Virus record (IMG/VR): IMGVR_UViG_3300017728_001586
Strand: one strand, 5' to 3'
From: an uncultured virus (IMG/VR IMGVR_UViG_3300017728_001586)
Lineage: Duplodnaviria; Heunggongvirae; Uroviricota; Caudoviricetes
Length of the DNA: 20,000 nt
The position numbers and the translations under genes are program-made. The notes under the pieces are model-generated. The model ran no database searches, was not told where the DNA came from, and worked only from the letters and a program-made list of their open reading frames with translations. Positions 1 through 17,300 of the stretch are shown here, piece after piece; position 1 is the first letter of the stretch, and the number at the start of each line of letters is the position of its first letter.

Positions 1-19
1 CTACGCCTTTTATTGCCAT
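1..19 (-). CDS. 5' end of next gene (MAIKGV...), runs off the window
   Basis: ATG at 19-17 overlaps the TAA of the 110-aa gene (TAATG coupling). Six open codons ATG GCA ATA AAA GGC GTA reach the window edge. Confidence 0.55.
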
Positions 20-351
20 TATCTGGTTACTCCTGGTGTGACTATTGCTTGACCTTCTACAACTCTTGTTGTTATACCACCAGCACTTGTTATGTTCATA
101 TCATACACATATCTTCCAGGTTCTAATGCTGATGTTTGAGTATCAGTCAAAGATAATGTCACTTTACCGGTAACATTCTCATTACTGGTAGTGAATGTGG
201 CAGATATGGTTGAAGAACCATAGGTCTTTCTTATTTGTCCTGCTGATGTATAACCAGAGAGATTTAAAACCTGTCCTGTTGAATCGGAAACATCTACAGC
301 AACTTGAAAGTCTGTTCCCTGGTCGATAAATAAATTTGCGATTATAGCCAT
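19..351 (-). CDS. Conserved T4-like phage hypothetical protein, 110 aa, probably a beta-sandwich virion/baseplate-associated protein
   Basis: Motifs ANLFIDQGTDF, GKVTLSLTDTQTSALEPGRYVYD and RVVEGQAIVTPGVTR match a small protein family I recall from tail regions of marine T4-like phages. It is co-oriented with the operon. Confidence 0.8.
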   Translation of the reverse strand: MAIIANLFIDQGTDFQVAVDVSDSTGQVLNLSGYTSAGQIRKTYGSSTISATFTTSNENVTGKVTLSLTDTQTSALEPGRYVYDMNITSAGGITTRVVEGQAIVTPGVTR

Positions 352-368: not shown

Positions 369-1463
369 CTATTCGTCAAACGGCAAAGCAGGTACCTGAT
401 GAATTTTCTCAACTGTTGAACTATCTTTCTTAACAAAGACTTTAGTTGAAGCTTTTACAACACCATCACTATCTTTTATAAAGACTCCTTTCACTTTTGC
501 AACTGGCGTTATTGGTCGATTAGAGTTCTCTGTTGCTTGAAATATAAACGGAGACCTGAATCCATATGGTTGTTGTCTGTTTTGTTGAAAACTATAAGAC
601 GCCTGACCTTGTGCAATATATGGTTGTCGACCAATAGTAGGATTTCTGTAAATAGAAGGACTTCTATATGAGAAAGGATATGTAAATGGTTGCCTTCTAA
701 TAACAGGGTCTTGTCTATTGTGAGTATTAAGATATTGTGCGTTATGTGCTGAAGGTGTTCTCTTATTTCTAATATTAGGTTCTTGTTGACTTCTAATATT
801 AGGTTGTTGTTTATTTTTAAGCGCTTGTCTAATAGAAGGTGTTTGTGCGCTTCTAATATTAGGTTCTTGTTGACTCGCTGGTGTTCTTGTTATAGAAGGA
901 GTTTGTTTACTCGCTTGATAAGCAGACTGTTTGTTTCTTATAACAGATTCCTGTTTATTTTTAATAGTAGGTTGTTGTTGATTTCTAATAAAAGGATTCT
1001 GCGTATTCGCTTGTGCATCTGCGGTGTAAGGACTTTGAGCGCTTCTAATATTAGGTTCTTGAGCAGTCTGTTGGGCGCTTCTTATACTAGGCGCCTGTTT
1101 GTCTCTAATAACAGGTTCTTGTGCGTTTGCAGTATACGGAGTTTGATGAGCTCTTTCAAACGGATTTTGTCTGTTTCTAATATTAGGTTCTTGTTGATTT
1201 CTAATATTAGGTTGTTGATTACTTTCCTGCTGATTTCTTTCAAACGGATGTTGTTTGTTTCTAATATTAGGTTGTTGATTACTTTCCTGCTGATTTCTTT
1301 CAAACGGATGTTGTTTGTTTCTAATAACAGGTTGCTGTGCCTGATGCTGTCGATTTCTTTCAAACGGATGTTGTTTGTTTCTAATAACAGGTTGTTGCGC
1401 TGGTTGTTGCACCTGTGTAGCAATAGGATGTTGGTATATGGATGGTTGTTGTCCTACTGGCAT
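369..1463 (-). CDS. Q/N/R/P-rich repeat protein, 364 aa (NIRNKQQP-type repeats), putative fibre partner chain
   Basis: ORF with AGGAG SD 9 nt upstream of ATG. It has 8/12/6-residue Pro-terminated repeats and a short C-terminal beta-rich tail (VAKVKGVFIKD...KVFVKKD). Confidence 0.85.
   Translation of the reverse strand: MPVGQQPSIYQHPIATQVQQPAQQPVIRNKQHPFERNRQHQAQQPVIRNKQHPFERNQQESNQQPNIRNKQHPFERNQQESNQQPNIRNQQEPNIRNRQNPFERAHQTPYTANAQEPVIRDKQAPSIRSAQQTAQEPNIRSAQSPYTADAQANTQNPFIRNQQQPTIKNKQESVIRNKQSAYQASKQTPSITRTPASQQEPNIRSAQTPSIRQALKNKQQPNIRSQQEPNIRNKRTPSAHNAQYLNTHNRQDPVIRRQPFTYPFSYRSPSIYRNPTIGRQPYIAQGQASYSFQQNRQQPYGFRSPFIFQATENSNRPITPVAKVKGVFIKDSDGVVKASTKVFVKKDSSTVEKIHQVPALPFDE
1201..1396. 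repeat. 60-bp coding tandem repeat, about 3 copies (20 aa: NIRNKQHPFERNQQESNQQP)
   Basis: 1201-1260 and 1261-1320 are identical. 1321-1380 is a diverged third copy whose last 29 nt are identical to the others. Confidence 0.95.
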
Positions 1464-1469
1464 ATCACA

Positions 1470-3071
1470 TTACTCCTGGTTATTATCATCGTTTTCATCG
1501 TCTTCTGGTTCTTCGTTTTCGTAATACAGAGTCACTTTTAGCGATATTGTATGAGTTCCCATATTAGCATCTGGACTTGTAAATGTAAATGTATTAGTTG
1601 TCTCGTACTCCTTAACATCTCCACCGCTAGCATTATCACATTTCCACTTGGTAAAAGTACCATTAGTTGTACCAAAACTCCAAGAAGTGCTAGTTATTGC
1701 AGTGCCTGTAGAAATGTTTCCGCTCAGAGTACCCTCATTGAAGGTACCATGAGTAGAGGTACTTCTAGCAACAGAATAATTAGTTCCAGCATCGTCTATT
1801 TTGTATAGAAGAATAGCACTATTTGCATTAATGCTTTGCTGCTGACCATTTTGAGTACCGCCGGTATTTGTTTCTTCCAGATATGCATCAGCATTCTGTC
1901 CAGGTGGTATACCATCAGATGAAGCATAAACATATACATTAACATCATTACTTGATTCAACACAATATAATACAATCCAAGGTTCTAGACCGCTATGGTC
2001 CGAAACTGAAACCTCACAATGAACTTCAGTATATGGAGCAGTCGTAGTACCAATGTTTTGCTGTTGTAATTCACTAAAGATAAACGGTGTTCGTGCATTT
2101 CTTGAGTTTTGTGTATTGACAATTACTGGAGTTGTAAATGGTGACCTATGTTGGTAAATACTCGGCGATTGATGCTGATAAATTGACGGACTTCTAAATG
2201 GTGACCTATGCTGATAAGTACTTGGCGATTGATGCTGATAAATTGACGGACTTCTAAATGGCGACTGATGCTGATAAGTACTTGGCGATTGATGCTGATA
2301 AATTGACGGACTTCTAAATGGCGACTGATGCTGATAAATCAACGGACTTCTATGGTCATAAGTGTCTGGACTTCTATGTTGATAGATACTAGGTTCTCTA
2401 TTATCGTATGTAGAAGGTGACCTATGGTCATAGGTAAATGGTGACCTATGTTGATAAGTAAACGGACTTCTATAAGGCGACCTATGGTCATATATTAAAG
2501 GTTCTCTATTTTGATATGTAGAAGGTGTTCGAGAAGGACTTTGGTGGTTATATGTTGAAGGACTTCTGTGGTCATATGTAAAAGGACTTCTATGTTCATA
2601 TGTTAAAGGTTGTCTATTTGTATAGATGCTAGGCGTTCTAGTCTGAGTCGGTGTACGATATATCAAAGGACTTCTATGTTGATATGTAGAAGGTTCTCTA
2701 TGTTGATAATTTAACTGATAAGTAAACGGTGACCTATGTTGATATGTCAACGGACTTCCATGTTGATATGTAGAAGGTGTTTGAATATTGTATATTGAAG
2801 GCGCCCTACTTGTGTATATAGCAGGCGACCTGTGATTATAGGTTTTTTGTGCGACACCTTGAGCAATTATTGGATTTTGTGCATTACTAGGCGTCTGAAC
2901 ATTTGTAGGTGTTCTACTTTGATATGTAAATGGTTGTGTTCCTTGAGTAGTAACCTGATAAATTCTTTGTGCGATATTCGGTTGTTGACCGGCTGCAGGT
3001 ACTCTGGCTAAAAAGGGTTGCTGAAAAGTTCCACCATTCTTATCATGTTTTATAAAAATATCGTCTGACAT
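1470..3071 (-). CDS. Y/H/R/S/P-rich repeat protein, 533 aa (xTYQHRSP repeats, aa 20-329) with a C-terminal ~200-aa non-repetitive domain, putative fibre with tip domain
   Basis: About 40 Pro-terminated segments, all of even length (4/6/8/12/14/16), then a Ser/Thr/Gly/Asn-rich domain and an acidic tail. It lies directly downstream of a fibre-like gene. Confidence 0.85.
   Translation of the reverse strand: MSDDIFIKHDKNGGTFQQPFLARVPAAGQQPNIAQRIYQVTTQGTQPFTYQSRTPTNVQTPSNAQNPIIAQGVAQKTYNHRSPAIYTSRAPSIYNIQTPSTYQHGSPLTYQHRSPFTYQLNYQHREPSTYQHRSPLIYRTPTQTRTPSIYTNRQPLTYEHRSPFTYDHRSPSTYNHQSPSRTPSTYQNREPLIYDHRSPYRSPFTYQHRSPFTYDHRSPSTYDNREPSIYQHRSPDTYDHRSPLIYQHQSPFRSPSIYQHQSPSTYQHQSPFRSPSIYQHQSPSTYQHRSPFRSPSIYQHQSPSIYQHRSPFTTPVIVNTQNSRNARTPFIFSELQQQNIGTTTAPYTEVHCEVSVSDHSGLEPWIVLYCVESSNDVNVYVYASSDGIPPGQNADAYLEETNTGGTQNGQQQSINANSAILLYKIDDAGTNYSVARSTSTHGTFNEGTLSGNISTGTAITSTSWSFGTTNGTFTKWKCDNASGGDVKEYETTNTFTFTSPDANMGTHTISLKVTLYYENEEPEDDENDDNNQE
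1473..1477 (-). promoter_or_regulatory. Shine-Dalgarno (AGGAG) for the 364-aa gene
   Basis: Minus strand CAGGAG-TAATGTGAT-ATG. The SD lies in the last codons of the 533-aa gene. Confidence 0.75.
2135..2337. repeat. 60-bp coding tandem repeat, about 3.4 copies (20 aa: SIYQHQSPSTYQHQSPFRSP)
   Basis: 2161-2220 and 2221-2280 differ at 4 positions. 2221-2280 and 2281-2340 differ at 2 positions. Confidence 0.95.
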
Positions 3072-3081
3072 ATTTTGTTCA

Positions 3082-5514
3082 CTATATTAAAAAGAAAAGA
3101 TGACCTATCTCTTTTCCACTACCACTAGGAAGACCACTAGATAAATCTGAGTCTGTTATCACACTATAATCTAACTCTATGTCGTTACCATCTAGAGTGA
3201 TACCATTACTCACTGAAGCTTCTAATGTTATCTCACCATCTGTAGTTGTATTAGTACCACCGTCTGGATTATCATTGTAGGTGAGTTTTATACCTTTATT
3301 TAGTTCAACATTTGCAGTACCATTTTGAGCTATTGTTCCATCACCACTTGCATCGAACTTAAATTGTTTAGCGACTCTGTTGTCTGTAAAGAACACAGCA
3401 GAAGCGTCTTCAGTTAAATTACTAGTACTACCAGCTTGGTCACCAGGGTTCCAAGCAGAACCACTCCATATTAGTATTTGACCAGTACTTGCACCACTAT
3501 TGACATTTGCTAAATCTTCTAAGTCGATTGATGGTAAGTCTGATAGAGTTAAAGCAGTAAGAGTAGTTGCAATAGATACATTACCCTTTGCAGTCTGAGT
3601 CTGGGTACCAGTGACTGCACCTGTTAATGTGAAAGTTGAATTTGCAATTGTTAAATCTATTGTACCATCAGCGTCATCGTCATTGTAAGTTGCTGTAAGA
3701 CCTGTATGTGTACCATTGGTTGCAATCTGAGCACCAGTAATGTCTTGTACTTTCTCGGTGAGTGTGACATTTGACCATGAAGAACCAGTTTGAACTAAAA
3801 TTTGGTCATTAGTATTGTTTGCATCTGAAACATCGTATAAGTCATTTAGAGCAAGTTCGGTAGAAGTAATATCTCCTTTAGTCAAAGCTCTAAGAGTAGT
3901 TGCAATTGTCAAATTACCTTTTGCAGTCTGAGTAGCAGTACCTGTGACTCCACCTGTTAATGTGAAAGTTGAATTGTCTACTACTAGATTTGTTTTGCCT
4001 GTATCATCGTTGTATGTGACTGATAGACCTGTTTCAGTATTACCAGCGAACATTGCACCAGCGATATCTTCAACTCTTTCTCGCATGGGTGTGTTTTCCC
4101 ATTGGTCTGTGGTATCATTATACAGTAAAACATGGTCTTCTGCAAGCGCAATAGGATGGTCTACATTTGCAAGATAATCTATATTCTTTAATGCGATTCT
4201 AGCGTCTGCTCTTGCATCTGTATAATATAGATTAGAATTATGTTCTGTTAAGTTTTGTGTTGTGTGGTTTGCAATACTTGAAACTGTACCAGTCAAAGAA
4301 CCTGCGTTTGCATTACTGTCGTGGTCAGATGTTGTATCTAGTATTGTGTGAGTACCAGCAAAGTTTTTAATGTTATTAACTACAGAACTACCTGATTTGA
4401 ATACTGAGTTAGTATCACCTGTTATATCATCGACACTTGTAATGTCGCCACCAGTGATATTCAATGTACCATCTGTTAGAGTTCCTACTGTTGCAGTTCC
4501 TGATACATTTGATAAGTTTGAATATACATTTGACCATCTCTTTGATGTTAAACCCAATGAATATGTATTAGTTGTTTCTGGTCTTAGATGAGAGTTTGCA
4601 TAACCTGTGAATGTAATTGTATCACTAGCGGCATTACCTAATGTTGTGTTTCCGTCTACTGTAAGGTTTGCATTTAAGGTTGTATTATCAACTACTTGAA
4701 GTGTTGATTGCATATGCACATCACCATCAATGTCTACAGCATCTAAATGAGATGTACCATTTACATCGATGTCGCCTTCGATATCTAAGAATCCTGAGAA
4801 TGTTCCGTTGACTGCGCCTGTTATAGAACCACTGTTGATACTCATTGTAGAATCAGTGATAGTAGGTGCAGTTAGTGTCTTGCCTGTTGTGAGTAAGATA
4901 TCATCTTCTGCAAATGTCTTACCTGCAAGTTGTATTGTATATCCAGATTCTAGTAGAGTTGTTGGTGATGAACTATCTCCATTTATAATAACACCGTTTG
5001 CATTGGTGTTATAGATTGTGTTCTCAACTGTTTTCTGGAAGAATGATGCAACTGAGTTTGCAATATTTGTTCCTACAAATGCACCAGTGTATGAGTATAC
5101 ATGAAGTCTATCGTTAGTAGACATTGCATTTGCTTGACCAGATGCATAAGTACCTGTTAGTGTGATACCCTCATGCGAACCTGTACCAGTAGGATTAGAA
5201 ATAATGAAATCTACATCTTCTATCAAATGTCTTTCGTTTTTAAATACTTGAATCTTATCTTTTACAAAAATTAAGTTATTTGCAAACTCATCGTTACCTG
5301 TAAATAGTGTTTGGTTTGTTGATGCAACGAATACGAACTCTTGGAAGAAAAACTGTTTGTCTTCTAAAACATTGACAGCATCAACTAGTGTTCCGTTGTT
5401 TCCAGATTTTAATCCTTCTCTTAGACCAGAAACTTCACCCACATCATATGCGAGTTCGTTATAGGTAGTTCTAAAGTCTTCAATTGTTGCGAAGTTGTCT
5501 ACTGTTTTAGCCAT
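3082..5514 (-). CDS. Tail-fibre-like structural protein, 810 aa
   Basis: N-terminus T(I)EDFRTTYNEL resembles fibre attachment segments of marine T4-like phages. It is Thr/Gly/Asp-rich, with fibre-type motifs (NLTVDGNTTLGNAASDTITF; TQNLTEHNSNLYYTDARAD; LxDLxxV...QILxxxGSxW) and an internal duplication. Confidence 0.75.
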   Translation of the reverse strand: MAKTVDNFATIEDFRTTYNELAYDVGEVSGLREGLKSGNNGTLVDAVNVLEDKQFFFQEFVFVASTNQTLFTGNDEFANNLIFVKDKIQVFKNERHLIEDVDFIISNPTGTGSHEGITLTGTYASGQANAMSTNDRLHVYSYTGAFVGTNIANSVASFFQKTVENTIYNTNANGVIINGDSSSPTTLLESGYTIQLAGKTFAEDDILLTTGKTLTAPTITDSTMSINSGSITGAVNGTFSGFLDIEGDIDVNGTSHLDAVDIDGDVHMQSTLQVVDNTTLNANLTVDGNTTLGNAASDTITFTGYANSHLRPETTNTYSLGLTSKRWSNVYSNLSNVSGTATVGTLTDGTLNITGGDITSVDDITGDTNSVFKSGSSVVNNIKNFAGTHTILDTTSDHDSNANAGSLTGTVSSIANHTTQNLTEHNSNLYYTDARADARIALKNIDYLANVDHPIALAEDHVLLYNDTTDQWENTPMRERVEDIAGAMFAGNTETGLSVTYNDDTGKTNLVVDNSTFTLTGGVTGTATQTAKGNLTIATTLRALTKGDITSTELALNDLYDVSDANNTNDQILVQTGSSWSNVTLTEKVQDITGAQIATNGTHTGLTATYNDDDADGTIDLTIANSTFTLTGAVTGTQTQTAKGNVSIATTLTALTLSDLPSIDLEDLANVNSGASTGQILIWSGSAWNPGDQAGSTSNLTEDASAVFFTDNRVAKQFKFDASGDGTIAQNGTANVELNKGIKLTYNDNPDGGTNTTTDGEITLEASVSNGITLDGNDIELDYSVITDSDLSSGLPSGSGKEIGHLFFLI
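3440..4080 (-). repeat. Intragenic tandem duplication of about 108 aa in the fibre gene
   Basis: ERVEDIAGAM...NSTFTLTGGVTGTATQTAKGNLTIATTL versus EKVQDITGAQ...NSTFTLTGAVTGTQTQTAKGNVSIATTL. Copies start at 4080 and 3756 (324-nt offset). Confidence 0.9.
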
Positions 5515-5728
5515 GTAATTTCTCTACTATATCTTTTAATAAGTCTTTAATTTCTGTTACCTCTTTCTTAAGAGTATTTATTTCATTCTTTTGAGTTTTT
5601 AAAAACTCTCTTCTTCTCATTGTCAACCTATACTGTTCTTCGTTAGTATTGATAATGGCATGAGAGGATTCATCCCTAATTAGGTCTGAAAATCCTTCCA
5701 CTTTATGTACTATCTTACGCAAGAGCAA
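5507..5728 (-). CDS. Small conserved phage protein with C-terminal coiled coil (start codon uncertain)
   Basis: KVEGFSDLIRDESSHAIINT followed by heptad-like EINTLKKEVTEIKDLLKDIVEKL. I recall this gene type following VrlC-like genes in marine T4-like phages. Its stop overlaps the ATG of the fibre gene. Confidence 0.8.
   Translation of the reverse strand: MLLRKIVHKVEGFSDLIRDESSHAIINTNEEQYRLTMRRREFLKTQKNEINTLKKEVTEIKDLLKDIVEKLHG
5575..5582 (-). promoter_or_regulatory. Possible late promoter (AATAAATA) about 60 nt upstream of the fibre gene
   Basis: 7/8 match to TATAAATA inside the small gene. It could be chance in AT-rich DNA. Confidence 0.35.
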
Positions 5729-8700
5729 TACACCTCAATGCAGTCACTAGTGGTACAATCGAAGTATTACTTGATTGACCAACTATCTTAACTACAAAAC
5801 CTGTGAACTCTGGTAAACCTTCAGCAGTATATTCATACTCTTTAAAGTTTCTTGCATCTTTTTCGGTCACCACATCTGGTTCTCCATCTCCATTGAAGTA
5901 TTCGAACCCTAAGTCATCGATAGGTGTTGTCTCGTCATTCTTTAATATCTTAAACATGAATTTTAAATCAGATTCAGGTGGTCTATAGTTATCTGCAATA
6001 ACTTTCAATGTAGTTGCAGGATTCTTAAGATTCACTTTTCTAGTGATATAGACCATGGCGTTATTATCGCCATCTGGATCAGTTGAAGGCACATGAATCA
6101 TAGAACCAGTTGAACCACCAGGTAGGTCATTAGCAGAATCAATATTATTGATTCTATTCATGATACCCAAACAACCAATCGTACCAATATCAATTACTGG
6201 AGATAAGTTCTGGTTAGCACTAGTAAACTGTAATCTACATTCAAATGATTTATTATTTGTGCCACCAGTCTGTTCTTCTGATTCATTAATACTCGATGCG
6301 ATAATACTAGGTCTTTCGAAATAGTTATTGTCATTTAATGTAATGAATTCATTCTTTGAGCGTAATGTAAATGTTGAATCTAAATTATTATCTTCAGGTG
6401 AATTAGTTCCTGTTCTTCTAACACTTGACAATAATGTTGTGTCTTTATATGTTAAAGAAGGTATCATTGTATGCAATACATCATAGTACATGTTAGTAGT
6501 TGCATATGCTTGGTCACCACCAGCAATAGTTGATTCAACTGCATTGGTATATGATAAGTGATATGATGATAAGTCTGGTGTACATGCAAATGAGTCGATA
6601 CCATAATTATTGATACTACTGAATACTTTATTAATTGAATCTACAGGGAAACCACCCAATGTATCTCCAACACTTGATAATGTTATAGTTGCATTGTTTG
6701 AACCATCATAGTTATTAATAGTGATAGATTCGTTTGCAGTATAACCTACACCTGGGTCTTTGATTGTCACTGAACTAATTTGATTTCCACTATTAACTGT
6801 TATTGTATCAATCTTAAGTCCTGTACCAGTACCACTGTAGGTATATCCTGTGGAATCCCAATTGGCGCCACTATTGTTATATGTACCAGCAGTTGGAGTT
6901 CCTGTTGTTGAACCTGCTACAGTTAATACACCATTCTTCTTATCTCCTTCTACGCCATATATAACAACATTCGATTGATTGTCGTACATACCATGTGAGT
7001 AAGAGTATACTCTAAAGAATGATTGATTAGAAAAAGTTTCTATTGAATTATTCTGCAATTTCTTAGGTGGTAAATGTGCGTTGTTAAACACGATGTTTGC
7101 AGCTGTAGTTGTATTAAACTTAGCGACTCTCATATTAAACTTCAAGTCATCTGTTTGTTCTGCTGTCCATGTAGATGCGTTCTGAGACATGAACAATGAA
7201 CCAGCGTATGGTTGTCCTGATATTGTCTGTCCAGTAATTAAATCTGTTTCGCCCATTCTGGAAATGAAACACTCGTAATCTGTTGAGTTAGTATACACAA
7301 CAAAACAATATTCATGTTTGTCTTCTAGGTATACAGGTGACTCAAATGTAAATGTAGTTGCGGATGAACCATCATCTGAAGTATTGACTTCATCTGGATT
7401 CTTTGTCACAATTGAGAATGGTATAGTTGTCTGTCCTGGATATCCATTTATCATATTTCTGATTTCTACTGATACAGGTAAACTAGTTGCCTTACTCTTA
7501 AAGAATACATCTATAGATGTTAGGAACATACCGCCATCAGATTCTACCATGAATGATTCTGCTAATGGGTCTTGCCAACCTCTTGGTTCTACTGGAATAT
7601 CAAAGTCAAATATTCTTCTGTCTTCTCTTGGAAGAACCATTAAATCAGCGGGTGGGAACCTTGGAGGTAATGGTACAGGAGGTGGTACAGGAACAGGCAC
7701 CGGCGGTGTAGGCACAGGCACAGGTACCGGAACTGGTACAGGGACTGGCACAGGCACAGGCACCGGATTCGGCACTGGCACATATACCGGAGTTGGTGGC
7801 ATAGGTGGTGGTGTCGGTGGTATTGGTGGAGGCGGCGCAATAGGTGGTGGTGGGGGTGGTAATGAACCATCTCCTGTCACATTTAATCTTTCACCTCTTC
7901 TTGTAATTGTTCTTTCGCCTGATAATCTTTCTGTCACCACTCTACCATTTCTAGTAGATACTATTTCTGTTTGTGAACTATTTAAGAGACCTTGTGCTTG
8001 ATAAATCTCTGCACCCATTGAATCTGGATTACTTTGATTCGATGACTGAGATGTTATCTTTAATTCTCTTTGTCCTGTTGGGAATCTTTGGAAGTTGTCA
8101 TTAGGTATTAAGAACTTACATTCTACTTTACCATTACCATTTGTTTTTATTCCAACACCCTTGTTTGTTGTTCCGTCTTGTGAGAAGTCAGCACTACTAG
8201 GTGTGACATAACCATCTACTCTGATACCATCAAAGTATACAAAGTGTTTTGTGTTTGGTTTTAAGTTAGTTCCTACTGCGGTTATCTCTCTACTTCTAAT
8301 GAAAGGTATAACACTGACACTAACAACTCTATCGTTTCTTGTTTCTACAAAGTCTTCAACTACTGAAGTATTAACACCTTGTCTTGATTGAATTTCTGGT
8401 GTTTCGGTAATCTCTGTTGTTATGATTGTACCTTGAACCCATTCACCACCTTGAGCAGGGTCACCAGACCAATTGCCAGGAACAGCTGCATCTACTGAAG
8501 AACTAACTACGGTTGGTTCACCAACCCATGTTGTCTGCCAGTTATTCCATATTGTTCCAAGTGAGTTTTGATTCTCTGCAAGAACAGCGTCAAAGTTTCC
8601 TTCTCTGTTGATTCTAACTTCTGGTAATTGTTCTGTATCATTCCATATATCAGAACCAGGAGTTAATTTGACATTACCTATAAATGCAAATACATGATAT

Positions 8701-11700
8701 GGATTAACATTGACATGTCTAGATGCCTTATCCTGATTTACATATGATACTTGTGAGTAAGGTAATGTAATTAAATCACCAGTCTGCTGATAACCAGTTG
8801 AACCAGATGCATTTAATTCTATATCAAAGAAGTTTGATACTGATTCTGGTCTTAATTGTCCCAATTTAGTATCTATACCAACATGATAATCAGGATGAGA
8901 TACATCACCAATTTTGTGACCTCTGAAGTTATCTACTAAGAAACCAGATTTGAATCTATCGAAACCTTGTGCATCTAATATCTGTTTTGTTTGTGTGTCT
9001 TTCTCTAATAAAGACAATGCAGTAATTCTTTCTAAGTTTGTGACTCTCTGATTGATTTTACCAATGTCGCCCATTGTAAATCTTCTGTAGTCTTTTGTTT
9101 TTACTTGTATTTGTTTTACATTTCTTGTAAATGCAGGTATAAACAATTCGAACATTTCTAAAGAATCATCAATTGAATTTGGTCTTTGTGGTGTTAAGGT
9201 CGGATTACCTTGTGCAACTTCGAATTTACCACTTCTATGTAAGAATACTTTATCGATTCTAGGCACATAGAACTCTATGTTTGACTTAATCATTGATGTT
9301 GGCAAAGGACATCTTGAATATGATGCATGTGCTGTCGTAATATCAGCAGTAGATACTCCTAATAGATTATCTCTAGAGGATTCAAAACTTCTTGCTTCAT
9401 ATGCAAATGGAGATATTAAGTGACCTGTACCATCACCACTACTGTAGTCTGATACATCTAATATACTTGCAATATTGAATACATAACTCTGACTAACTAA
9501 ATCTGCATTACCAAATAGTTGACCAACTGATGGTCTAAAGTCTACTGCATCTGCAAGTTCAAATTGTCCATCTGGTTCAAAACCACCCAAGTCTACTTTG
9601 TTTGGTGAGAAGTTAGGAATGTCTTTATATGAAATACTATTTGTATATGAATTTACATCATAGAAATCACCAGAACCACCTACAAACATATCAAATAATA
9701 CTGTTATTTGATTATTTGGTGTTGTCTGTCCTTGTTTTAAAATAAGTTTTGCGTGGTCATAATAACCATCTCTTTGACCATTGTCTAAAGAGTATCTATT
9801 TGTTATTTCAGGAGATTGAACTCCTAATGATGTTATGGTTGCAATTCCACCTGTTGTTTCATCTACTACTGTTTCGCCTGCGGTAAACTTTTCGGTTCCT
9901 AAGTAGTAAAAATAACATGTTTGCGTATCAGTAAACTTCATAAGTTTAGCACGAACACCTGTTGTAGCACCTTTAATTATATTTCCTGTTGTACTTGTAC
10001 CAGATGTTAGAGTTATAACTGCATTTGGTGGTGTTGCAACACCACTTGTATCTGTTCCTGGAACTGCCTCAAATATGCCTCTGATTTTGTATACATCTGA
10101 AACACCAAGAGATAGTTCTTTGTAGTCATATGCAGTACCATAGAATGGATTATCTGCATGTGCATCGTTCTTAGTGAATCTTAATGCACGAAACTCTCTT
10201 AAGTTCTTTGATTTCGATGTTGGGTTAGTGACACTAACTGTATATGTCGCCCTTACGATTGCACCATCGTCAGCAGCTGCACCCAATACAACTTCACCAG
10301 ATGATGTATTGACTGAAGAGACATCATCGCCTCCTAATACTACACCATTAGCTCTTGTTGGACTTCCTGTCGCTTCTTTGACAATTGCGAACTGATAGTT
10401 GTCGTTGTTTTTTGGTTCAAATGATTCGTTTGCTTCTTTTGTGAGTGTTATCTCACCAGAAGTACCAACTTCAAATTCTTTTTGATACTTAACTGTAATC
10501 TCTGTAGGTGTTGATTTACTTACATGGTCTCTAGGGAATGCAAATACTGTAGCAGATTGGTCTTGATTGTAAAGTTTTGCTCTTCGTCTGAGTAGTCCAA
10601 CTTGTTTAATGTTAGTTCCGGCAGCAACTAGTGTTGCATTTGAATTGTCTGTCACGGATGCAATAAGTTGTTCAGCACCATTACCATCTAAGACTATATC
10701 ACCCTTTCTTAGTTCAGTCAAGAAATCAGTACCAACACCTGTTAAAGCTGTACTAGTTATTGTTGTTAGACCCGATATAACTTTGTCGTTGTCTAATGCA
10801 ATATTGGCAGTAAAGTTTTGTGTTCCTGTTGTTTCAGAAGACTTAGTTTGACCAACACTTCTTGCATCTTCTACTTGAAAACTACGAACAGCAGTAATAC
10901 TAAAATCTACTTTTACTTTACCTGTTCCAGTTCCTGCAGCTGCAGCCGTGAAAGTAGAACCTACTGCGTATGTCTGACCAGAAGTGCCTGCGGCCGTATT
11001 CCACTGTGCTTGAGTTGTGTTTCCAAGTTCCGTTATTATATATGGAGTAGTTGAAACAAAACTTCCAGCATTGACTATAATCGTACCGCATGTACCTTGT
11101 CCCTTTAGTGAAAGGGTATCTGTTGTTTTGAATGTACCAACAACATCATGTACCATAATATGATTGTTTGTAGTATCTGCATATGCAACAATACCTACTG
11201 CGCCAGATGCTGAACCTGTGACTTTATCACCAACTTTGAAGTTGTTTGTCGCAACTGTAGTACTTAACATTGTGAACATCTTGATATCAAATAGATATAG
11301 ATTTTCAAAAGCAGTTGAGTGTTCGTCAATGTTTCTTACTCTTGCAAAACCGATATGACCAACTGTTGTTGTTGATCCAGTGCCTGCATATGCATTAAGT
11401 GTGCCTGGTGTTGCAGTTGCCTTATCAAATAGTTGAATTGCTTTATATGATTCTGTATTTGTAGAATCACCAAACTCTGGTTGACCATGTGAATCTTTAA
11501 TTCTTAATTTGTTTCCTAGTCTTGCAGGTGTGTTTGCGTTTGTAAGCGCCTCTGTTGTTCTTGCCTTGTTTAATGTTAAATTCGTTGTGCCTGTTTTATC
11601 AATAGAGTAACCTTTAACATATGCTTTACCAGGAGAGACTTGCATAACAAATTGACTCTCATCTCCACCTTGATACGCTTCATAGAATCCTCTATTGAAT

Positions 11701-12701
11701 CCGTCTAGTAAATGTTCTCTAAATGAATGTGTGAATTGTCGTATTACAAAATCACCATTCGCATCAAATGTTCTTTGTGCAAGTGTGTTTTCTATATGAT
11801 TGTATACTGGTCTTTTTACTTCTAATTCTATAACACCATTACTAACTCTTCCCAACTCTACAAAGTTTGTATCTGTTGTAGCAGTTAGTGCGAACTTAGC
11901 AAGTGTTAATGTGAACTTAAGTCTATCTGCACCAGCAGCGTTTTCATTTGTTGTTCCTTGTGAATTGTCTAGTAGAGTTGTATCAGTGCCAGAACCAACA
12001 AGTTCTTCTACAATGTCTAGACCAATTCTATAAGAAGGTTTACCATTATACTTTTCTAATACAATTGTTTGTGCATCTACTTTGACGAAGTATCCTCTTA
12101 AGAATACAACACCCTCATTTATACTTGCAATAGATGAACGGCCGACTGGTGAAAGACCAAGTGCAGCTACTTTGAATTCATTGTTATTTGATGCAGTGGT
12201 TATTGCACCAGCGGCACTAACATTAACTTCACTTATCTCTTCAGAAGGACTAAATCTTTCTGAAGGATTTGTTGTTGCAGTTTCGTCTGTACCATGTTGT
12301 AAATATCTTACAATAATAGTTGCTAAATCTGTTCCTGTAGATGCAACTGTTTTTACTATCTCTGCAACGACTCCAGTTGTCTCTCCTTGAATTAGTTTAC
12401 CTGTGAAACCACTTAGATATGTAGCGACATCAGCTGTTCCAGTAGAGTTAGGATTAGTTGCCTCGACTTTAACATATTCGACATCCATATCGATGTCTGT
12501 CTCTGCACCATTGACAATCGAACCCTCTTTGAACATGTGACTACCAAATTTTTGTATTTGGTTTTGTAAGATTGATTGTGACTGAGTTAGTTCTCTTGCC
12601 TGTAGGGGTCTACCTGCTCTGAAGAGTACTTTGTGATAATTGTTATCCTCATTGTAGTCATCGTAGTATGGTGATATATTTAAGTCTGTTTTTTCTGACA
12701 T
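5715..12701 (-). CDS. Large virion structural protein, VrlC-like / DUF4815 family, 2328 aa
   Basis: Characteristic N-terminus TDLNISPYYDDY...YHKVLFRAGRPLQARELTQSQSILQNQI. Internal motifs ENAAGADRLK, GKAYVKGY, DRFKSGFLVDNF, NVNPYHVFAF and DPLAESF. It follows gp8. Confidence 0.88.
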   Translation of the reverse strand: MSEKTDLNISPYYDDYNEDNNYHKVLFRAGRPLQARELTQSQSILQNQIQKFGSHMFKEGSIVNGAETDIDMDVEYVKVEATNPNSTGTADVATYLSGFTGKLIQGETTGVVAEIVKTVASTGTDLATIIVRYLQHGTDETATTNPSERFSPSEEISEVNVSAAGAITTASNNNEFKVAALGLSPVGRSSIASINEGVVFLRGYFVKVDAQTIVLEKYNGKPSYRIGLDIVEELVGSGTDTTLLDNSQGTTNENAAGADRLKFTLTLAKFALTATTDTNFVELGRVSNGVIELEVKRPVYNHIENTLAQRTFDANGDFVIRQFTHSFREHLLDGFNRGFYEAYQGGDESQFVMQVSPGKAYVKGYSIDKTGTTNLTLNKARTTEALTNANTPARLGNKLRIKDSHGQPEFGDSTNTESYKAIQLFDKATATPGTLNAYAGTGSTTTVGHIGFARVRNIDEHSTAFENLYLFDIKMFTMLSTTVATNNFKVGDKVTGSASGAVGIVAYADTTNNHIMVHDVVGTFKTTDTLSLKGQGTCGTIIVNAGSFVSTTPYIITELGNTTQAQWNTAAGTSGQTYAVGSTFTAAAAGTGTGKVKVDFSITAVRSFQVEDARSVGQTKSSETTGTQNFTANIALDNDKVISGLTTITSTALTGVGTDFLTELRKGDIVLDGNGAEQLIASVTDNSNATLVAAGTNIKQVGLLRRRAKLYNQDQSATVFAFPRDHVSKSTPTEITVKYQKEFEVGTSGEITLTKEANESFEPKNNDNYQFAIVKEATGSPTRANGVVLGGDDVSSVNTSSGEVVLGAAADDGAIVRATYTVSVTNPTSKSKNLREFRALRFTKNDAHADNPFYGTAYDYKELSLGVSDVYKIRGIFEAVPGTDTSGVATPPNAVITLTSGTSTTGNIIKGATTGVRAKLMKFTDTQTCYFYYLGTEKFTAGETVVDETTGGIATITSLGVQSPEITNRYSLDNGQRDGYYDHAKLILKQGQTTPNNQITVLFDMFVGGSGDFYDVNSYTNSISYKDIPNFSPNKVDLGGFEPDGQFELADAVDFRPSVGQLFGNADLVSQSYVFNIASILDVSDYSSGDGTGHLISPFAYEARSFESSRDNLLGVSTADITTAHASYSRCPLPTSMIKSNIEFYVPRIDKVFLHRSGKFEVAQGNPTLTPQRPNSIDDSLEMFELFIPAFTRNVKQIQVKTKDYRRFTMGDIGKINQRVTNLERITALSLLEKDTQTKQILDAQGFDRFKSGFLVDNFRGHKIGDVSHPDYHVGIDTKLGQLRPESVSNFFDIELNASGSTGYQQTGDLITLPYSQVSYVNQDKASRHVNVNPYHVFAFIGNVKLTPGSDIWNDTEQLPEVRINREGNFDAVLAENQNSLGTIWNNWQTTWVGEPTVVSSSVDAAVPGNWSGDPAQGGEWVQGTIITTEITETPEIQSRQGVNTSVVEDFVETRNDRVVSVSVIPFIRSREITAVGTNLKPNTKHFVYFDGIRVDGYVTPSSADFSQDGTTNKGVGIKTNGNGKVECKFLIPNDNFQRFPTGQRELKITSQSSNQSNPDSMGAEIYQAQGLLNSSQTEIVSTRNGRVVTERLSGERTITRRGERLNVTGDGSLPPPPPPIAPPPPIPPTPPPMPPTPVYVPVPNPVPVPVPVPVPVPVPVPVPTPPVPVPVPPPVPLPPRFPPADLMVLPREDRRIFDFDIPVEPRGWQDPLAESFMVESDGGMFLTSIDVFFKSKATSLPVSVEIRNMINGYPGQTTIPFSIVTKNPDEVNTSDDGSSATTFTFESPVYLEDKHEYCFVVYTNSTDYECFISRMGETDLITGQTISGQPYAGSLFMSQNASTWTAEQTDDLKFNMRVAKFNTTTAANIVFNNAHLPPKKLQNNSIETFSNQSFFRVYSYSHGMYDNQSNVVIYGVEGDKKNGVLTVAGSTTGTPTAGTYNNSGANWDSTGYTYSGTGTGLKIDTITVNSGNQISSVTIKDPGVGYTANESITINNYDGSNNATITLSSVGDTLGGFPVDSINKVFSSINNYGIDSFACTPDLSSYHLSYTNAVESTIAGGDQAYATTNMYYDVLHTMIPSLTYKDTTLLSSVRRTGTNSPEDNNLDSTFTLRSKNEFITLNDNNYFERPSIIASSINESEEQTGGTNNKSFECRLQFTSANQNLSPVIDIGTIGCLGIMNRINNIDSANDLPGGSTGSMIHVPSTDPDGDNNAMVYITRKVNLKNPATTLKVIADNYRPPESDLKFMFKILKNDETTPIDDLGFEYFNGDGEPDVVTEKDARNFKEYEYTAEGLPEFTGFVVKIVGQSSNTSIVPLVTALRCIALA
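7651..7860 (-). repeat. Low-complexity poly-Pro / (VP)n coding tract
   Basis: PPPPPPIAPPPPIPPTPPPMPPTPVYVPVPNPVPVPVPVPVPVPVPVPTPPVPVPVPPPVPLPPRFPP. The DNA is locally GC-rich with imperfect 6-bp periodicity (ggcaca/ggtaca). Confidence 0.95.
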
Positions 12702-12755: not shown

Positions 12756-14258
12756 TTACATTTCAATAATTAGTTTAATATCTTCAATTTGGTCAGCGGC
12801 TCTTGAAACTGCGCCTCTATTTTCAACATAGAGAATTTGACCTGTAAATCTTTGCATTTCTGGATGAGCAGAAGAGACACCAGATGCGGTAACATCAGCA
12901 ACTTTTGTGCCAGCTTTATAGACTTCATCATCATTTGCAAATGCGATATATTCGCCACCTGAATTAGCAACAGGTAAGGTTTTTAGAGTATTACTTGTCT
13001 TAGATACAACTCTTACTTTAGCAGTGGTTGCTGATTCAGATGAAGCATCTGTAAGTAAGTCATCAACATTAATTGAAGAAGCATTATCAACTGTCAACAT
13101 ATTTGTTGCAGTCATTGTTGCATCTCCAGAAACAGCACCAGATGATGCTTTTACTGGATTCTTAATAAGACCAATTCTTCTGAAGTCATTGTCTGTTGGG
13201 AAATCACTAAACCCACCATCAAGACCTTCACCAAACTCTAATCTAGAGTTTACGATTGCATAGTTACCACCCATTTCTTCGATAGGGTTAGCACCATGAC
13301 CATTAATTGGCGACATTATAATATGAACTGTAGCACCTGAACCACCTGCAATACCTGAAACATTGGAGTCTAATGTAGGTAATGATGCTCTTTTATAACC
13401 TGTTCCCCAATAACTAGTACCAGAACGATGATATGCTTGTTTTAAATTACCTGAAACGAAACTTAAAGTGACTTCTGCACCAGAACCATCTCCCTGTACA
13501 GGAACATTAACTGTAAATGTATTTGATGAACCACTTGTGTAACCAGAACCGGCAGCGGTTACGACATAATGATAAACTGCGCCGTCTACGGCAGCGTTTT
13601 CAACATCCCATTGAGCAGAACCATCATCATCAGCAGTTGAACCAAACCCACCATTTGTACCAGAACCTACTACAGCAGATTTAGCACCAAGTGATTTTAC
13701 TGGTATAAAGTCGTTAGTGACAAACTTAATAACATCTGAAGCGGTAACTGAGTACATAAATTTCCACATATATCCTAAAGATGCATTTGCATCTGCGGTC
13801 ACTTCAGGAACTGTTGTTGAAATAGTTATTGGTTTAACTGTAGAATTTATAGTTGCACCATTTGAATCAACACCTGTTCTTAAACATTTGTATACTTTAA
13901 ATTCGTCTGTAATTACATAACCTCTTCCATCGAAGAAGTTAGATACATTTGTGACATTGGTTGTATTGGAAGCAGAATAGTTATCTCTGTATTCATCATA
14001 CTTAGTACCATCTGTCCAATTATATCTTACCAATCCATGTGAGATATCAGTTGAAGCGACTGCCTTTAGGGCAATCATGTCTTCATATACACCGATTTCT
14101 TCTGATTCTGAGTTTGCAGGAGGAGGTGGTTGTGTGTCATCTGCCCATGCATGTGAACGACCAATAAAGACATAGTTCTTTTGACCACTCTCTGAGAAGT
14201 CTTCAATGAACTGCCTTGCATTGTGCGTTCTAAATTTTTCTGTGATTATTGCTGCCAT
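12756..14258 (-). CDS. gp8: Baseplate wedge subunit, T4 gp8-like, 500 aa
   Basis: MAAIITEKFRTHNA N-terminus, YVFIGRSHAW, RYNW..G..YDEY, VYKCL, GYMWKFMY, NDFRRIGLIKNP and the C-terminal GQILYVENR...RAADQIEDIKLIIEM are typical of marine T4-like gp8. Synteny is gp6-gp7-gp8. Confidence 0.92.
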   Translation of the reverse strand: MAAIITEKFRTHNARQFIEDFSESGQKNYVFIGRSHAWADDTQPPPPANSESEEIGVYEDMIALKAVASTDISHGLVRYNWTDGTKYDEYRDNYSASNTTNVTNVSNFFDGRGYVITDEFKVYKCLRTGVDSNGATINSTVKPITISTTVPEVTADANASLGYMWKFMYSVTASDVIKFVTNDFIPVKSLGAKSAVVGSGTNGGFGSTADDDGSAQWDVENAAVDGAVYHYVVTAAGSGYTSGSSNTFTVNVPVQGDGSGAEVTLSFVSGNLKQAYHRSGTSYWGTGYKRASLPTLDSNVSGIAGGSGATVHIIMSPINGHGANPIEEMGGNYAIVNSRLEFGEGLDGGFSDFPTDNDFRRIGLIKNPVKASSGAVSGDATMTATNMLTVDNASSINVDDLLTDASSESATTAKVRVVSKTSNTLKTLPVANSGGEYIAFANDDEVYKAGTKVADVTASGVSSAHPEMQRFTGQILYVENRGAVSRAADQIEDIKLIIEM

Positions 14259-14299: not shown

Positions 14300-14307
14300 T
14301 ATTTATA
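14300..14307 (-). promoter_or_regulatory. T4-type late promoter TATAAATA upstream of gp8
   Basis: Perfect consensus on the minus strand, overlapping the gp7 stop codon, about 41 nt upstream of the gp8 ATG. A GGAG SD lies between them. Confidence 0.8.
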
Positions 14308-17300
14308 ACAATGCCAAGGCACTATTTGTAATATTTGATGAATTAACATAGGAACTAAATGCAATATTAGTTCTTCTTCTCTGTTTTTTATCTATCTCTT
14401 CGACATATAAAAGACCTGTCAGGTCACTCATCTGTTTAATTGTTAGTCCGTCTTTTTCAGAATCTTCTGAAAGTAGACCACTTATGCCATCTTCTAATAA
14501 GATTTTGTCTTCTTCATTTGCACTAGAAGTCTCATCTAAGATATAATGAGATATCTTATAACAATTTTGGAATGCAATCTTATTTAGGGTTTTTAAAGTC
14601 GGACCAATTGGAATGAATGTATGTACCTCTTCGCCTGACTCTTCATCTACTATAGGAACACCATCTTCAAATACTATTCTAGAATTGTCTTCCATATACA
14701 TGTAAGAATTGTCTAGTTCAATTGACCTTTCAGTCACAAAATACTCTCTAGTCTCAGGTACAGTTTCATCTTCTAGTAAGAAACTACCTGAACCATCTTC
14801 CATTAAAATCTTTTCACCATATAAGTCTCTATCGAATGGATCGAATCTTACATAGTTTAAAGGTTCTTCGTTTAAAATCTTTGTGCCGTCTTCATGTATC
14901 AATACTTCTTCTGACGGATGCCAGAACTGAAATACTTTACCAGAGTCAGCAGGTCTTATCGCAACATTACCGTATTCACTTGTCAATGGAACATTTGAAT
15001 TATTCACATAGTAATCGTGGTCGGCAGTGTCGAGATTTAATACAGTCACAGCGCCATCTCTTCTTGGAGATTTTTGTATGAATGTATTGAATTCTGTTAT
15101 TGTTGGTCTTCTAATTGATGATACAGTACTTGGGTCATTATCTATTTTAGTATCTAATGCACTTGTTATAAACTCTTTTCTGTTTAGAATGTTTAAATGA
15201 CCTGCACCCTTGTGTTTATCTGTTGATATGTTTGTACCTGATGCCTCACGATATTGAAGTATCATGTCTTGATTTTCTACTTCAGCAGAAGTTGTATGGA
15301 ACAACATGAGAGTTTCTTTACTTAGATGTGCTACATTGTCTCTGGAGTCTTCATTTTCTAACAGATGACCGTCTTCAGTTAAAACTCTAACTGATTTATC
15401 TCTAGTAGATTCTTCGAACAACATATTGTCTGTTGGGTATGCCTGAATGACAATTGTGGGAACAAACTCTGTAGAAATAATTCCCATTTTGTTCTGTTCA
15501 TTAACATCAAATGGTATTTCTTTAACACCATCTAATGATGAACCTAGAAGTTGAGACTTGAGTGCAACCTCACCAAAGAATAAGTGACCTGATGGATGAA
15601 CTAAGTCTTTAACTATAGAACGATACTTATTGATTGACTCACCAACTTTAATAACATAAGAGTGAGACTGATAGAATTTACTATCTTGTATGTTTGCAAC
15701 TTTAGAAGATAGATAACCTTTGTCACTTAAGAAACCATCGTTTATTAAACCTTCACCAGCAACTTTACCTCTTGCAGTATATGGGTCATTCTTAAGAATT
15801 AAGAAACTATCTGAACCCTCATAAGTTACCTTTTCATCATTGATGAACATACCCTTTAAGTTTTTATACTTGAGTATTTGTCTGATTGTATCGTAATTTT
15901 GAACTGTTGCAGTAGCACCAGAAATTACACCAGTAATTGTTATGCCTTTGTTTAGATTACCTGATGGTGTAGTTATCAACATATTATGGAAAGATGTTGC
16001 TTCGTCTAATACTGCATCTGAATCAAACTTACTACCTTGGTCTAGTAAAGTTACCTTCTCAATACCACCAATCCTAGATGACCATGCGAAGAACTTAGCA
16101 CCTGTACCATCTGATACCTTGGCACTACTACAAACTTTAGTTGTAGAAGAATTTCCCCCTACTATGTTTTCGCCATCTTGGAAAACACCAGCATCAGTAC
16201 TGAATCTTTTAATTACGAGTCTGTTCTTTTTCGGTTCTAGTCTTAAAATTGTACCTGTAGCGTTTGAAGTAGAACCTGTAATAGTTTCACCCTTTTGGAA
16301 TCCTGTCGTATCTTTAAAGTATAGATAACCACCTGGGAATGCTTGAGGCAGTGTTTCATATCCTGCACCACCACTTGTTATTTCGACTCGTCTTACTCTT
16401 TGGTCTGTTGATACAATTGAACCACCATCAGTATTTTGATATGCATTGATTAACATCTCTGTACCATCTTCGTACAGTAATCTACTCTTATCGGTAAATA
16501 TCTCTACTCTTTCTCCGCCACTTAAATTTGGATTTGTTGTGAATGTTATCTTTTGTGGTTCTATACTATATGTTGATTGTGATTGAACTATGCCATCGAT
16601 GTGAACTTCTAATGCACCGTGAAATCTGTTAATTGAAATTGGTTTGCCATGGTCATCTAATACATTATCGAATCTATTTCCATTTTGTATTACACCACCA
16701 AATACAGTTTGGTTTGCAACTGCGGTTATTTCATACTGTTCATCTGCATGAGCATCTTCTAAGATTATCTCATCACCGACTGCACCAATGATACCCTCTG
16801 CACCACCTCCGCCTGTACCTTCGTCATCGAATACTACAATATCTCCACCACTGTAAGTTTGACCAGTAGTTTCTATATAAATCTTTTCTACAGGACCTCT
16901 AGTTAGTCCTGTCACATTACCTAATGCCCTATTTGCATCTGTATCTGTTTTTGAACCAGTGAAGTTGATGAAGTCTTGAGGACTATACATAGAACCAATT
17001 GAAGTTTCTTCATGTAGTAATCCATTTCCATCTTCGTCTAATATAGAACCAGTTGAGTCTTCTAATGAGAAATAGATTGAACCGTTTGTTGGGTCTACTG
17101 TAGATACAATACCCTTAACTGTTCCGATATACTCGGTGACACCATCTCTATCTAATACTTTTGCCTCTTTGTTGAACTCAAATGTTCCTCTGTGGTCTTT
17201 CGATATAGAGAGTGAATACTCATTGTTTGCTAAATCTATTGGTGATACTTGTTCTACGACTGCCTCTGCTGTCACAATACTAGCATCGTTAATGTCATAT

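Follow-up and report, generated by a model that had tools for sequence, protein, structure and literature searches.

Mirror-image proline registers in two adjacent phage genes point to a two-chain antiparallel fibre stalk

In a 20,000-nucleotide stretch of DNA from an uncultured virus (IMG/VR record IMGVR_UViG_3300017728_001586; Caudoviricetes), hereafter the window, two adjacent genes, here called A and B, encode proteins whose prolines are spaced as mirror images over 310 residues, which raises the question of why one polypeptide read backwards should reproduce the register of its neighbour. From the sequences of the window and of related loci we propose, with a probability of roughly 0.78, that A and B would together form one long fibre stalk of two antiparallel strands, encoded in a host-recognition cluster. 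A preliminary description, made from the letters of the window, had named the two open reading frames, and both are confirmed on the minus strand. Their stalks are built largely of proline-delimited units, which are called Y-type when position 3 is aromatic and n-type otherwise:

1470–3071, minus strand: gene A, 533 amino acids (aa), with a candidate base strand, a 310-residue stalk and a C-terminal tip domain
3015–3071, minus strand: A residues 1–19 (MSDDIFIKHD...QQP), the proposed base strand, which would face the start of the B tail
2085–3014, minus strand: A stalk, residues 20–329, mostly Y-type units with the consensus [F/S/L]-T-Y-[Q/N/D]-H-R-S-P
1473–2084, minus strand: A tip domain, residues 330–533, globular, all-β in a low-confidence model and a near-orphan
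1473–1477, minus strand: AGGAG, resembling a Shine-Dalgarno sequence, within the final codons of A and 9 nucleotides (nt) before the ATG of B (1461–1463)
369–1463, minus strand: gene B, 364 aa, with a 310-residue stalk and a conserved C-terminal tail
513–1442, minus strand: B stalk, residues 8–317, mostly n-type units N-I-R-N-[A/Q]-Q-[Q/E]-P, plus 12-mers FERNQQESNQQP
372–512, minus strand: B tail, residues 318–364 (ITP-VAKVKGVFIKDSDGVVKASTKVFVKKDSSTVEKIHQVP...), a proposed base element

Both stalks are polar and of low complexity (Q, P, S, T, N, R, Y). The A stalk contains 14% S, 13% P, 12% Q, 11% T, 10% Y, 9% R and 6% H, and the B stalk contains 19% Q, 11% P, 11% N and 10% R. When the two proteins are cut after each proline, the two segment series given in the preliminary description are reproduced exactly, and A residues 20–329 and B residues 8–317 amount to 310 residues apiece. 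The segments in which a substituted proline had been proposed are likewise found, namely the 24-mer TIKNKQES/VIRNKQSA/YQASKQTP and the 16-mer SAHNAQYL/NTHNRQDP. At the mirror offset (i + j = 336) 31 prolines of A coincide with prolines of B, which corresponds to 31 of the 36 prolines in the B stalk and 31 of the 41 in the A stalk, and the best parallel offset yields 21 coincidences. Shuffled segment orders, which had been named as a possible refutation, do not match equally well: in 1000 shuffles of the B segments the mean is 12.6, the maximum is 20 and none reaches 31. Neither chain is palindromic, given self-mirror counts of 24 ordered or 12 distinct pairs for A against A and 18 for B against B. 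Even segment lengths, which had been claimed throughout, hold for every stalk segment in the window and fail in the single-gene relatives L071 and L087, which have runs of 7, 9 and 11 residues.

Related loci were gathered by A and, to avoid selection on the repeats, by a 110-aa neighbour of B used as an anchor. The anchor search took the best 80 of 144 matches, and 12 of these 80 have too little upstream sequence. The anchored, non-random sample of 68 loci comprises 47 two-gene A/B loci, 16 loci with a single proline-periodic gene and 5 unclassified loci. Excluded from the counts are L064/L066 and L080, in which a B-type gene (238 or 299 aa) follows a short open reading frame that fails the A-type filter; this frame either has a different N-terminus or has its start called within the gene.

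The two-gene set contains 37 unique pairs with the window and 36 without it. With 1000 shuffles for each of the 37 pairs, the observed mirror score is reached by no shuffle in 24 pairs, by 2–17 shuffles in seven and by 71–280 in six, all six from the L044/L047 group. The best mirror offset minus the position of the AKVKG motif in the B tail is 11–14 in 29 of the 36 pairs and 3 in the remaining seven, while the motif itself lies anywhere from residue 189 to 348; the base register is therefore constant at any stalk length. Independent variation of the repeat lengths in homologous pairs had been named as another refutation, and the mirror is retained while the lengths vary from about 190 to 350 residues. 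In a 21 × 21 matrix of lineage representatives, 67% of the B-stalk prolines (0.67) are matched on average for cognate partners versus 36% (0.36) for non-cognates, and the mean of the cognate diagonal is matched by 0 of 100,000 permutations. The cognate partner is top-ranked for 15 of the 21 A proteins and 15 of the 21 B proteins; the cognates that are not ranked first belong to close relatives (rank 2–4) or to the L044/L047 lineages (ranks 5–13).

Insertions or deletions (indels) of equal length at the mirrored place in the partner gene had been proposed as a test, and they are seen. Pairwise alignments of related lineages provided nine comparisons, two of them without indels, and the clearest cases read as follows:

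Window versus L022, indels in A with mirrored B positions: +4 (106–109), −16 (63–64), −4 (43–44), +10 (13–22)
Window versus L022, indels in B: +4 (100–103), −16 (62/63), −4 (39/40), +10 (12–21)
L070 versus L057, indels in A: −12, −2−2, +10 (mirrors to B 83–92), −8
L070 versus L057, indels in B, at the mirrored places: −12, −4, +10 (83–92), −8

Between L084 and L070 the net indel sizes agree between the chains at the same places (+14 and −4), and the large indels agree between the chains for L084 versus L057 and for L041 versus L045.

The facing units are also complementary in kind. The 21 representatives yield 277 cleanly matched unit pairs: 257 heterotypic, 5 Y:Y and 15 n:n, where independence would lead one to expect about 64 Y:Y and about 74 n:n pairs. 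When the three lineages whose A stalks are entirely Y-type are left out, 207 heterotypic, 4 Y:Y and 10 n:n pairs remain. Among diverged pairs, L057 and L084 for example have Y-type and n-type units in each of their two chains; even there, units at mirrored positions are of opposite kind. The best parallel register gives 171 unit pairs, of which 54% are heterotypic (93% in the mirror register), and 330 proline coincidences versus 476 for the mirror. Shifting the register by ±6 or ±14 residues lowers the heterotypic share to 20–47%. The unit pairs occur in three formats:

8:8 format: Y-type [F/S/L]-T-Y-[Q/N/D]-H-R-S-P, n-type N-I-R-N-[A/Q]-Q-[Q/E]-P
6:6 format: Y-type F-T-Y-R-N-P, n-type V-N-A-Q-E-P
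10:10 format: Y-type F-T-Y-A-R-Q-G-Q-T-P, n-type Y-P + Y-I-A-x-x-Q-x-P

When proline is set against proline, 111 of 179 8-mer pairs have one of the small residues Ala, Gly and Ser opposite Tyr3, and Ile2 lies opposite Arg6. His5 is opposite Arg3 or Lys3 in 105 of 120 pairs, and Asn5 is opposite Ala3 in all 23 of its pairs and never opposite Arg or Lys; this distinction between His5/Arg3 and Asn5/Ala3 is independent of which chain bears the Y-type unit. Mutual information exceeds the shuffle level only between Y5/Y7 and n1/n3 and between Y1 and n5/n7. It sums to 1.89 bits on the anti-diagonal and 0.32 bits on the parallel diagonal, with odd positions only, and the anti-diagonal that had been proposed as a signature of the pairing is thus present. 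A period of two, linking the C-terminal end of one unit with the N-terminal end of the unit it faces, matches the prediction for an antiparallel β-ladder, and a polyproline II (PPII) helix would give a period of three. Because the covariation follows every second residue, β-strand pairing is suggested, and the stalk chains probably pair in a β conformation. Mirror register, co-evolution, unit complementarity and antiparallel covariation are all observed in the sequences.

Sixteen loci (14 unique proteins of 446–543 aa) carry a single gene whose product has the N-terminus of an A-type protein and the tail of a B-type protein but lacks a tip domain. The unit lengths of L071 are 7x6,9,9 ... 9,9,7x6, and its relative L087 reads ...7x6,(2+9),7... 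and ...7,11,7x6..., which, on these lengths, is to be read as a compensated change inside one chain. The exact-offset self-mirror is significant in 7 of the 14 proteins (0–22 of 1000 shuffles), and in alignments of the single-gene forms the mirror is clear in the base-proximal half, with the same Y/n complementarity as in the two-gene pairs. These proteins fit a hairpin in which a loop takes the place of the tip domain.

The claim that the two chains are antiparallel and in register along the whole repeat region is supported by the shuffles, the cognate fit, the matched indels and the anti-diagonal covariation. The complementarity of facing unit types and the existence of single-gene hairpin forms are additions to the preliminary description. 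In the architecture that we propose, the A chain would run from the base outward over about 310 residues to a variable globular tip domain, and the B chain would start beside the tip and return to the base, where its C-terminal β-hairpin tail would lie alongside the N-terminus of A. Each proline-delimited unit (6, 8, 10 or 12 residues) would stand opposite a unit of equal length and opposite type, the Y-type units x-T-Y-x-H-R-S-P and F-T-Y-R-N-P facing the n-type units N-I-R-N-x-Q-x-P, V-N-A-Q-E-P and Y-I-A-x-x-Q-x-P. Tyr3 would lie over Ala or Gly5, His5 would meet Arg3 or Asn5 would meet Ala3, and Ser7 would meet Asn1, in paired β-strands kinked at the facing prolines. Physical pairing of A with B, a location in the virion and a role in receptor binding would be predicted on this basis. 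If fully extended at about 3.3 Å per residue, stalks of 190–350 residues would span roughly 60–115 nm; the preliminary description had put the stalk of the window at about 100 nm on the same assumption. By analogy with other T4-type fibres the oligomer is possibly a trimer of A:B pairs. The base is proposed to consist of 'DIFIKHD' of A beside 'GVFIKD' of B, in agreement with the extrapolated register, which places A 5–9 (IFIKH) opposite B 327–331 (VFIKD); the base may plausibly be a sheet of three strands. Within the B-type and single-gene proteins, conservation is highest in the B tail, which has invariant alignment columns.

The AGGAG motif in the end of A and a spacing of −1 to 13 nt between the A stop and the B start in all 36 unique related two-gene loci suggest that translation of A and B is coupled, which would give equal amounts of the two chains. 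In the window (1461–1472) the ATG of B lies in the frame of A with a TAA stop and two codons between, and read-through would yield a stalk-tip-stalk chain. As a conserved feature such a fusion is rejected, since spacings of 1, 2, 11 and 13 nt or a 1-nt overlap break the frame in relatives.

We consider it slightly better than an even bet that the stalk represents a natural, sequence-coded antiparallel protein heteroduplex, a protein analogue of base pairing, in which the Y/n unit code (6:6, 8:8, 10:10) would set partner and register over more than 300 residues, and the fibre would be lengthened, shortened and re-tipped by compensatory unit-pair indels in two genes. Sub-rules such as His5:Arg3 versus Asn5:Ala3 would form part of this code.

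Several observations weigh against the antiparallel two-strand stalk. L044, L047, L049, L051–L053 and L056 have a weak single-offset mirror (11–14 coincidences, reached by 15–280 of 1000 shuffles), and in the L044/L047 lineages the cognate partner ranks 11th and 13th for A and 8th and 5th for B. Of the nine indel comparisons, two (window versus L042 and L033 versus L036) are too rearranged for their indels to be assigned one to one; for window versus L042, with mirror offsets of 336 and 246, the net length change is 90 versus 89 residues in the two chains. Seven of the 14 single-gene forms lack a significant self-mirror (195–606 of 1000 shuffles), the exact-offset statistic being too rigid for this half. 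Odd-length units in some relatives fit poorly to a strictly regular β-ribbon. Units are typed by the one residue at position 3, and the 21 representatives were chosen by us from the 37 pairs to drop near-duplicates. Register shifts of ±8 or ±16 leave 73–88% of the unit pairs heterotypic, over fewer units (60–157), because of super-repeats and all-Y or all-n chains. The unit pairs come from related lineages with duplicating units and are not independent events, so that Fisher and chi-square values overstate the significance; the direction of the unit and residue covariation is robust, and the p-values are not. No relative of A or B is found among solved structures, and an AlphaFold2 (AF2) monomer model of the single-gene protein L058 (12-row alignment) has a mean predicted local distance difference test (pLDDT) score of 31 with an unstructured stalk, and is uninformative as to a hairpin. 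Its sole predicted structure is the tail β-hairpin at residues 488–511 (pLDDT about 50), the equivalent of the B tail. A complex prediction for A 1–350 with B, run 1:1 with 14-row alignments and without controls, scored 0.02 against a mark of 0.32 and weighs neither way.

Two other readings keep the mirror and change what it would mean for the fibre. A and B might lie apart and run with opposite polarities along a third, periodic scaffold that they share, such as the trimeric shaft of the 810-aa fibre-like protein, whose gene lies directly upstream of A and is syntenic in related loci. A ruler shared in this way would by itself account for matching lengths, and structure prediction gave direct A:B contact no support. 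However, a common ruler predicts equal lengths and not opposite unit types (257 of 277), nor does it predict the covariation of facing residues between the chains (His5/Arg3, Asn5/Ala3); the length of the upstream fibre (529–810 aa, and 399–432 aa in single-gene loci) has no obvious relation to stalk length, a comparison made without a formal test. We regard this scaffold as improbable. Rather less improbable, and still unlikely, is that the chains do pair antiparallel and form a flexible extensible tether or a compact solenoid-like body, or that B is an assembly strap that is not retained in the virion. The polar low-complexity composition, the absence of structure in the AF2 model of L058, prolines that would kink a ribbon every 6–10 residues and the annotation of the adjoining 110-aa gene as a fibre assembly protein all favour such a form. 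The single-gene forms, which keep the returning strand covalently attached, argue against B as a transient assembly factor, and the conservation of the tail, together with a base register that stays constant, suggests that the architecture is defined from one end to the other.

A third reading takes the mirror as a historical artefact of DNA, in which one of the two genes arose from the other by inverted duplication and is now read from what was once the antisense strand. The geometry would fit a hairpin-type inverted repeat, with inner ends at 1442 and 2085 and outer ends at 513 and 3014, and the antisense strand of B does hold a long open frame. The symmetry nevertheless exists at the protein level only, as the preliminary description had stated: the window DNA contains no inverted repeat longer than 16 nt and only two short, chance-like inverted pairs. 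At the implied register the sense strand of A is 25.5% identical to the reverse complement of B, with a shuffle mean of 25.2%; across 97 offsets the maximum is 34.6%, and a direct comparison reaches 35.8%. Antisense translation against the partner protein gives one 15-residue match at E = 2.3 and none in the other direction. Homologous units share their N-to-C orientation across both chains (direct repeats D11, D13 and D14), and a frozen accident leaves the matched indels and the cognate specificity in diverged lineages unexplained. On the DNA identity and the antisense translations this origin is rejected, and we give it almost no credence. The open frame antisense to B (783–1541, plus strand, 252 aa) contains 'SNIR' motifs because the N-I codons AATATT are palindromic and the proline codon CCT reads AGG (Arg) on the opposite strand; rather than a gene, it is in all likelihood a side effect of the repeat.

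The two-strand stalk thus remains the preferred reading, and it can be set beside systems already described. To our knowledge, the phage fibres studied to date are parallel homotrimers or a single chain that folds back along a short needle. The preliminary description knew of no precedent, and this holds in part: the two-gene code is undescribed in the literature searched, and out-and-back stalks with a tip do exist in the T4 gp37 needle and the streptococcal AgI/II stalk. A pairing code with two genes, equal units and two unit types did not turn up in that literature, with subscription journals and supplements lying outside the search. The C-terminal triple-stranded β-helix of T4 gp5 is built of octapeptide VxGxxxxx repeats with parallel strands from three identical chains, and it shares with A and B an eight-residue period in an elongated β structure of a T4-type tail protein. 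In contrast to gp5, which has no complementary partner chain, neither stalk contains a single VxG and the mirror beats the parallel register. The fibronectin-binding repeats of staphylococci and streptococci form a tandem β-zipper: the repeat chain, itself disordered, contributes antiparallel β-strands along a row of partner modules, and the order of the short motifs sets the register. Unlike A and B, this zipper has as its partner a string of folded host-protein domains and not a second repeat chain, and we know of no mirror-length rule or two-type unit code in it.

The closest phage analogue, as far as the published account of its structure describes it, is the T4 gp37 needle (D10-D11), an out-and-back T4-type receptor-binding fibre with its tip at the far end. 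In this needle D10 is formed from residues 811–881 and 1010–1026, the chain running to the tip and back, and the whole is a homotrimer from a single gene, about 130 residues long, with seven histidine-bound iron atoms (PMC6957217). Both gp37 and A/B lie in the tail-fibre cluster of a T4-like phage. By contrast, A and B are encoded by two genes, or by one in some relatives, their strands are about 310 residues long and their proline-delimited units fall into two complementary types; they have no sequence similarity to solved fibre chains and no Pfam fibre family. The HxH motif that binds iron in gp37 is absent from the A stalk and from B, where the lone histidine of the Y-type unit faces an arginine. 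For A and B the out-and-back topology would follow from the mirror covariation, and the single-gene relatives hold both halves.

In architecture the closest analogue is AgI/II, again in terms of what the source sets out: in SpaP, SspB and BspA the repeat regions flanking a variable V domain intertwine antiparallel into a stalk of more than 50 nm with V at the tip, the N- and C-terminal parts lock at the base, and Tyr or Asn of one repeat interlocks with the other (PMC7732690). The stalk is made by one chain, an Ala-rich α-helix wound with a Pro-rich PPII helix, and the partner repeats differ in length. A and B resemble it in two repeat regions that would run antiparallel and in the variable tip domain between the A stalk and the start of B, which is swapped in L006/L019 and absent from the single-gene forms. 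They differ in their equal-length units, one proline per 6–12 residues in both chains, period-two covariation and usually two genes, and with 3.2% and 7.4% Ala the two stalks are not Ala-rich. The A/B stalk belongs to neither the gp37 needle type nor the AgI/II type.

Two gene products apparently matched unit by unit over hundreds of residues, with a code that evolves through paired indels, would represent a new principle of fibre construction and a new way to build long protein rods. The stalk would be a modular, programmable protein zipper whose length and pairing specificity can be read from the sequence. If confirmed, it would account for a family of widespread, unannotated genes that abundant marine myoviruses carry in their host-recognition region (the two-gene or single-gene form occurs in 63 of the 68 loci in the anchored, non-random sample).

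The long open reading frames of the window all lie on the minus strand and together constitute a T4-type baseplate and fibre module. Around A and B it contains:

18692–19930, minus strand: gp6-like protein
14303–18109, minus strand: wedge-like protein of 1268 aa that repeatedly matches large PHROGs annotated 'virion structural' and 'baseplate wedge'
12756–14258, minus strand: gp8-like protein
5715–12701, minus strand: DUF4815/VrlC-like protein of 2328 aa (phrog_358, E = 0)
3082–5514, minus strand: fibre-like protein of 810 aa with the N-terminus MAKTVD..., directly upstream of gene A
19–351, minus strand: conserved 110-aa neighbour, phrog_1084/phrog_3304 ('L-shaped tail fiber protein assembly')

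The synteny of the 810-aa fibre-like gene is kept across all related loci, and its product matches no Pfam or PHROG family. Likewise, A and B match no family in Pfam or PHROG, apart from a sub-threshold Bflower_3 hit on A only (17 bits, cutoff 34), and phmmer against all PDB chains returns no match for either at E ≤ 1. No match came from 50,697 phage records searched by megablast with the window and by tblastn with A and with B, to which the low-complexity filter may contribute. The A/B cassette lies downstream of VrlC, between the baseplate genes (gp6, gp8, VrlC/DUF4815) and the fibre genes, and in pelagimyophages the stretch downstream of VrlC has been named the host recognition cluster (PMC7029224). 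By this location, A and B are assigned to the host-recognition cluster of a pelagimyophage-like, T4-type marine phage, of the pelagimyophage/cyanomyophage (Kyanoviridae-like) kind. The curli-like proteins of pelagimyophages were considered as an identity for A and B and rejected, since in the genomes described there the curli-like genes sit elsewhere (PMC7029224). The closest cultured relatives of the 110-aa protein come from Methylophilales phage Melnitz and the Pelagibacter phages HTVC008M and Mosig (49–57% identity). Upstream of the 110-aa homologue, Melnitz-1 (L093) and HTVC008M (L094) have no proline-periodic genes and lack the A/B cassette, and in its place they carry unrelated fibre-like genes (536 aa and 626 aa, 2–4% Pro). 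The mirror pair is thus a replaceable cassette of the cluster, and the 110-aa neighbour, being present in these phages without the cassette, is not specific to A and B.

The tip domain of A is exchanged in some relatives. In L006/L019 (A gene L019:2776–4374) an unrelated domain replaces the C-terminal 200-residue tip on a stalk of about 90% identity to that of the window, and the B proteins are 93% identical. Exchange of the tip on a stalk that is itself conserved is typical of receptor-binding modules, and the variable tip domain of A is likely the receptor-binding part. In the window its AF2 model is all-β with ten strands (mean pLDDT 54). An exhaustive search among 1.84 billion representatives gave two fragment matches, a word-indexed search returned only the protein itself, the best ESM Atlas score (0.83) lies below the useful range, and Foldseek of the model against the PDB gave nothing at E ≤ 0.001. 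The A-type protein of L037 (2922–4667, 582 aa) has a nine-glycine run in a long C-terminal region and a further proline-containing tail beyond the tip. Its partner gene encodes a short B protein of 269 aa, and the pair has a modest mirror score of 14 coincidences, which 10 of 1000 shuffles reach. The A-type proteins of L067 (2891–4615) and L072 (993–2750) end, after the tip region, in a Hint/intein-like domain that matches Hom_end_hint with 33.6 and 37.4 bits (cutoff 32.1) and Vint with 34.5 bits (cutoff 27). PF14890 is a precomputed assignment on many of the matches homologous to A and B. The end of the A-type protein of L079 (2763–4580) resembles these Hint-bearing ends by eye and gives a weak AXH match only. 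Lying at the very end of A, next to where B begins, a self-cleaving or ligating domain of this kind could act in processing the stalk at its tip end.

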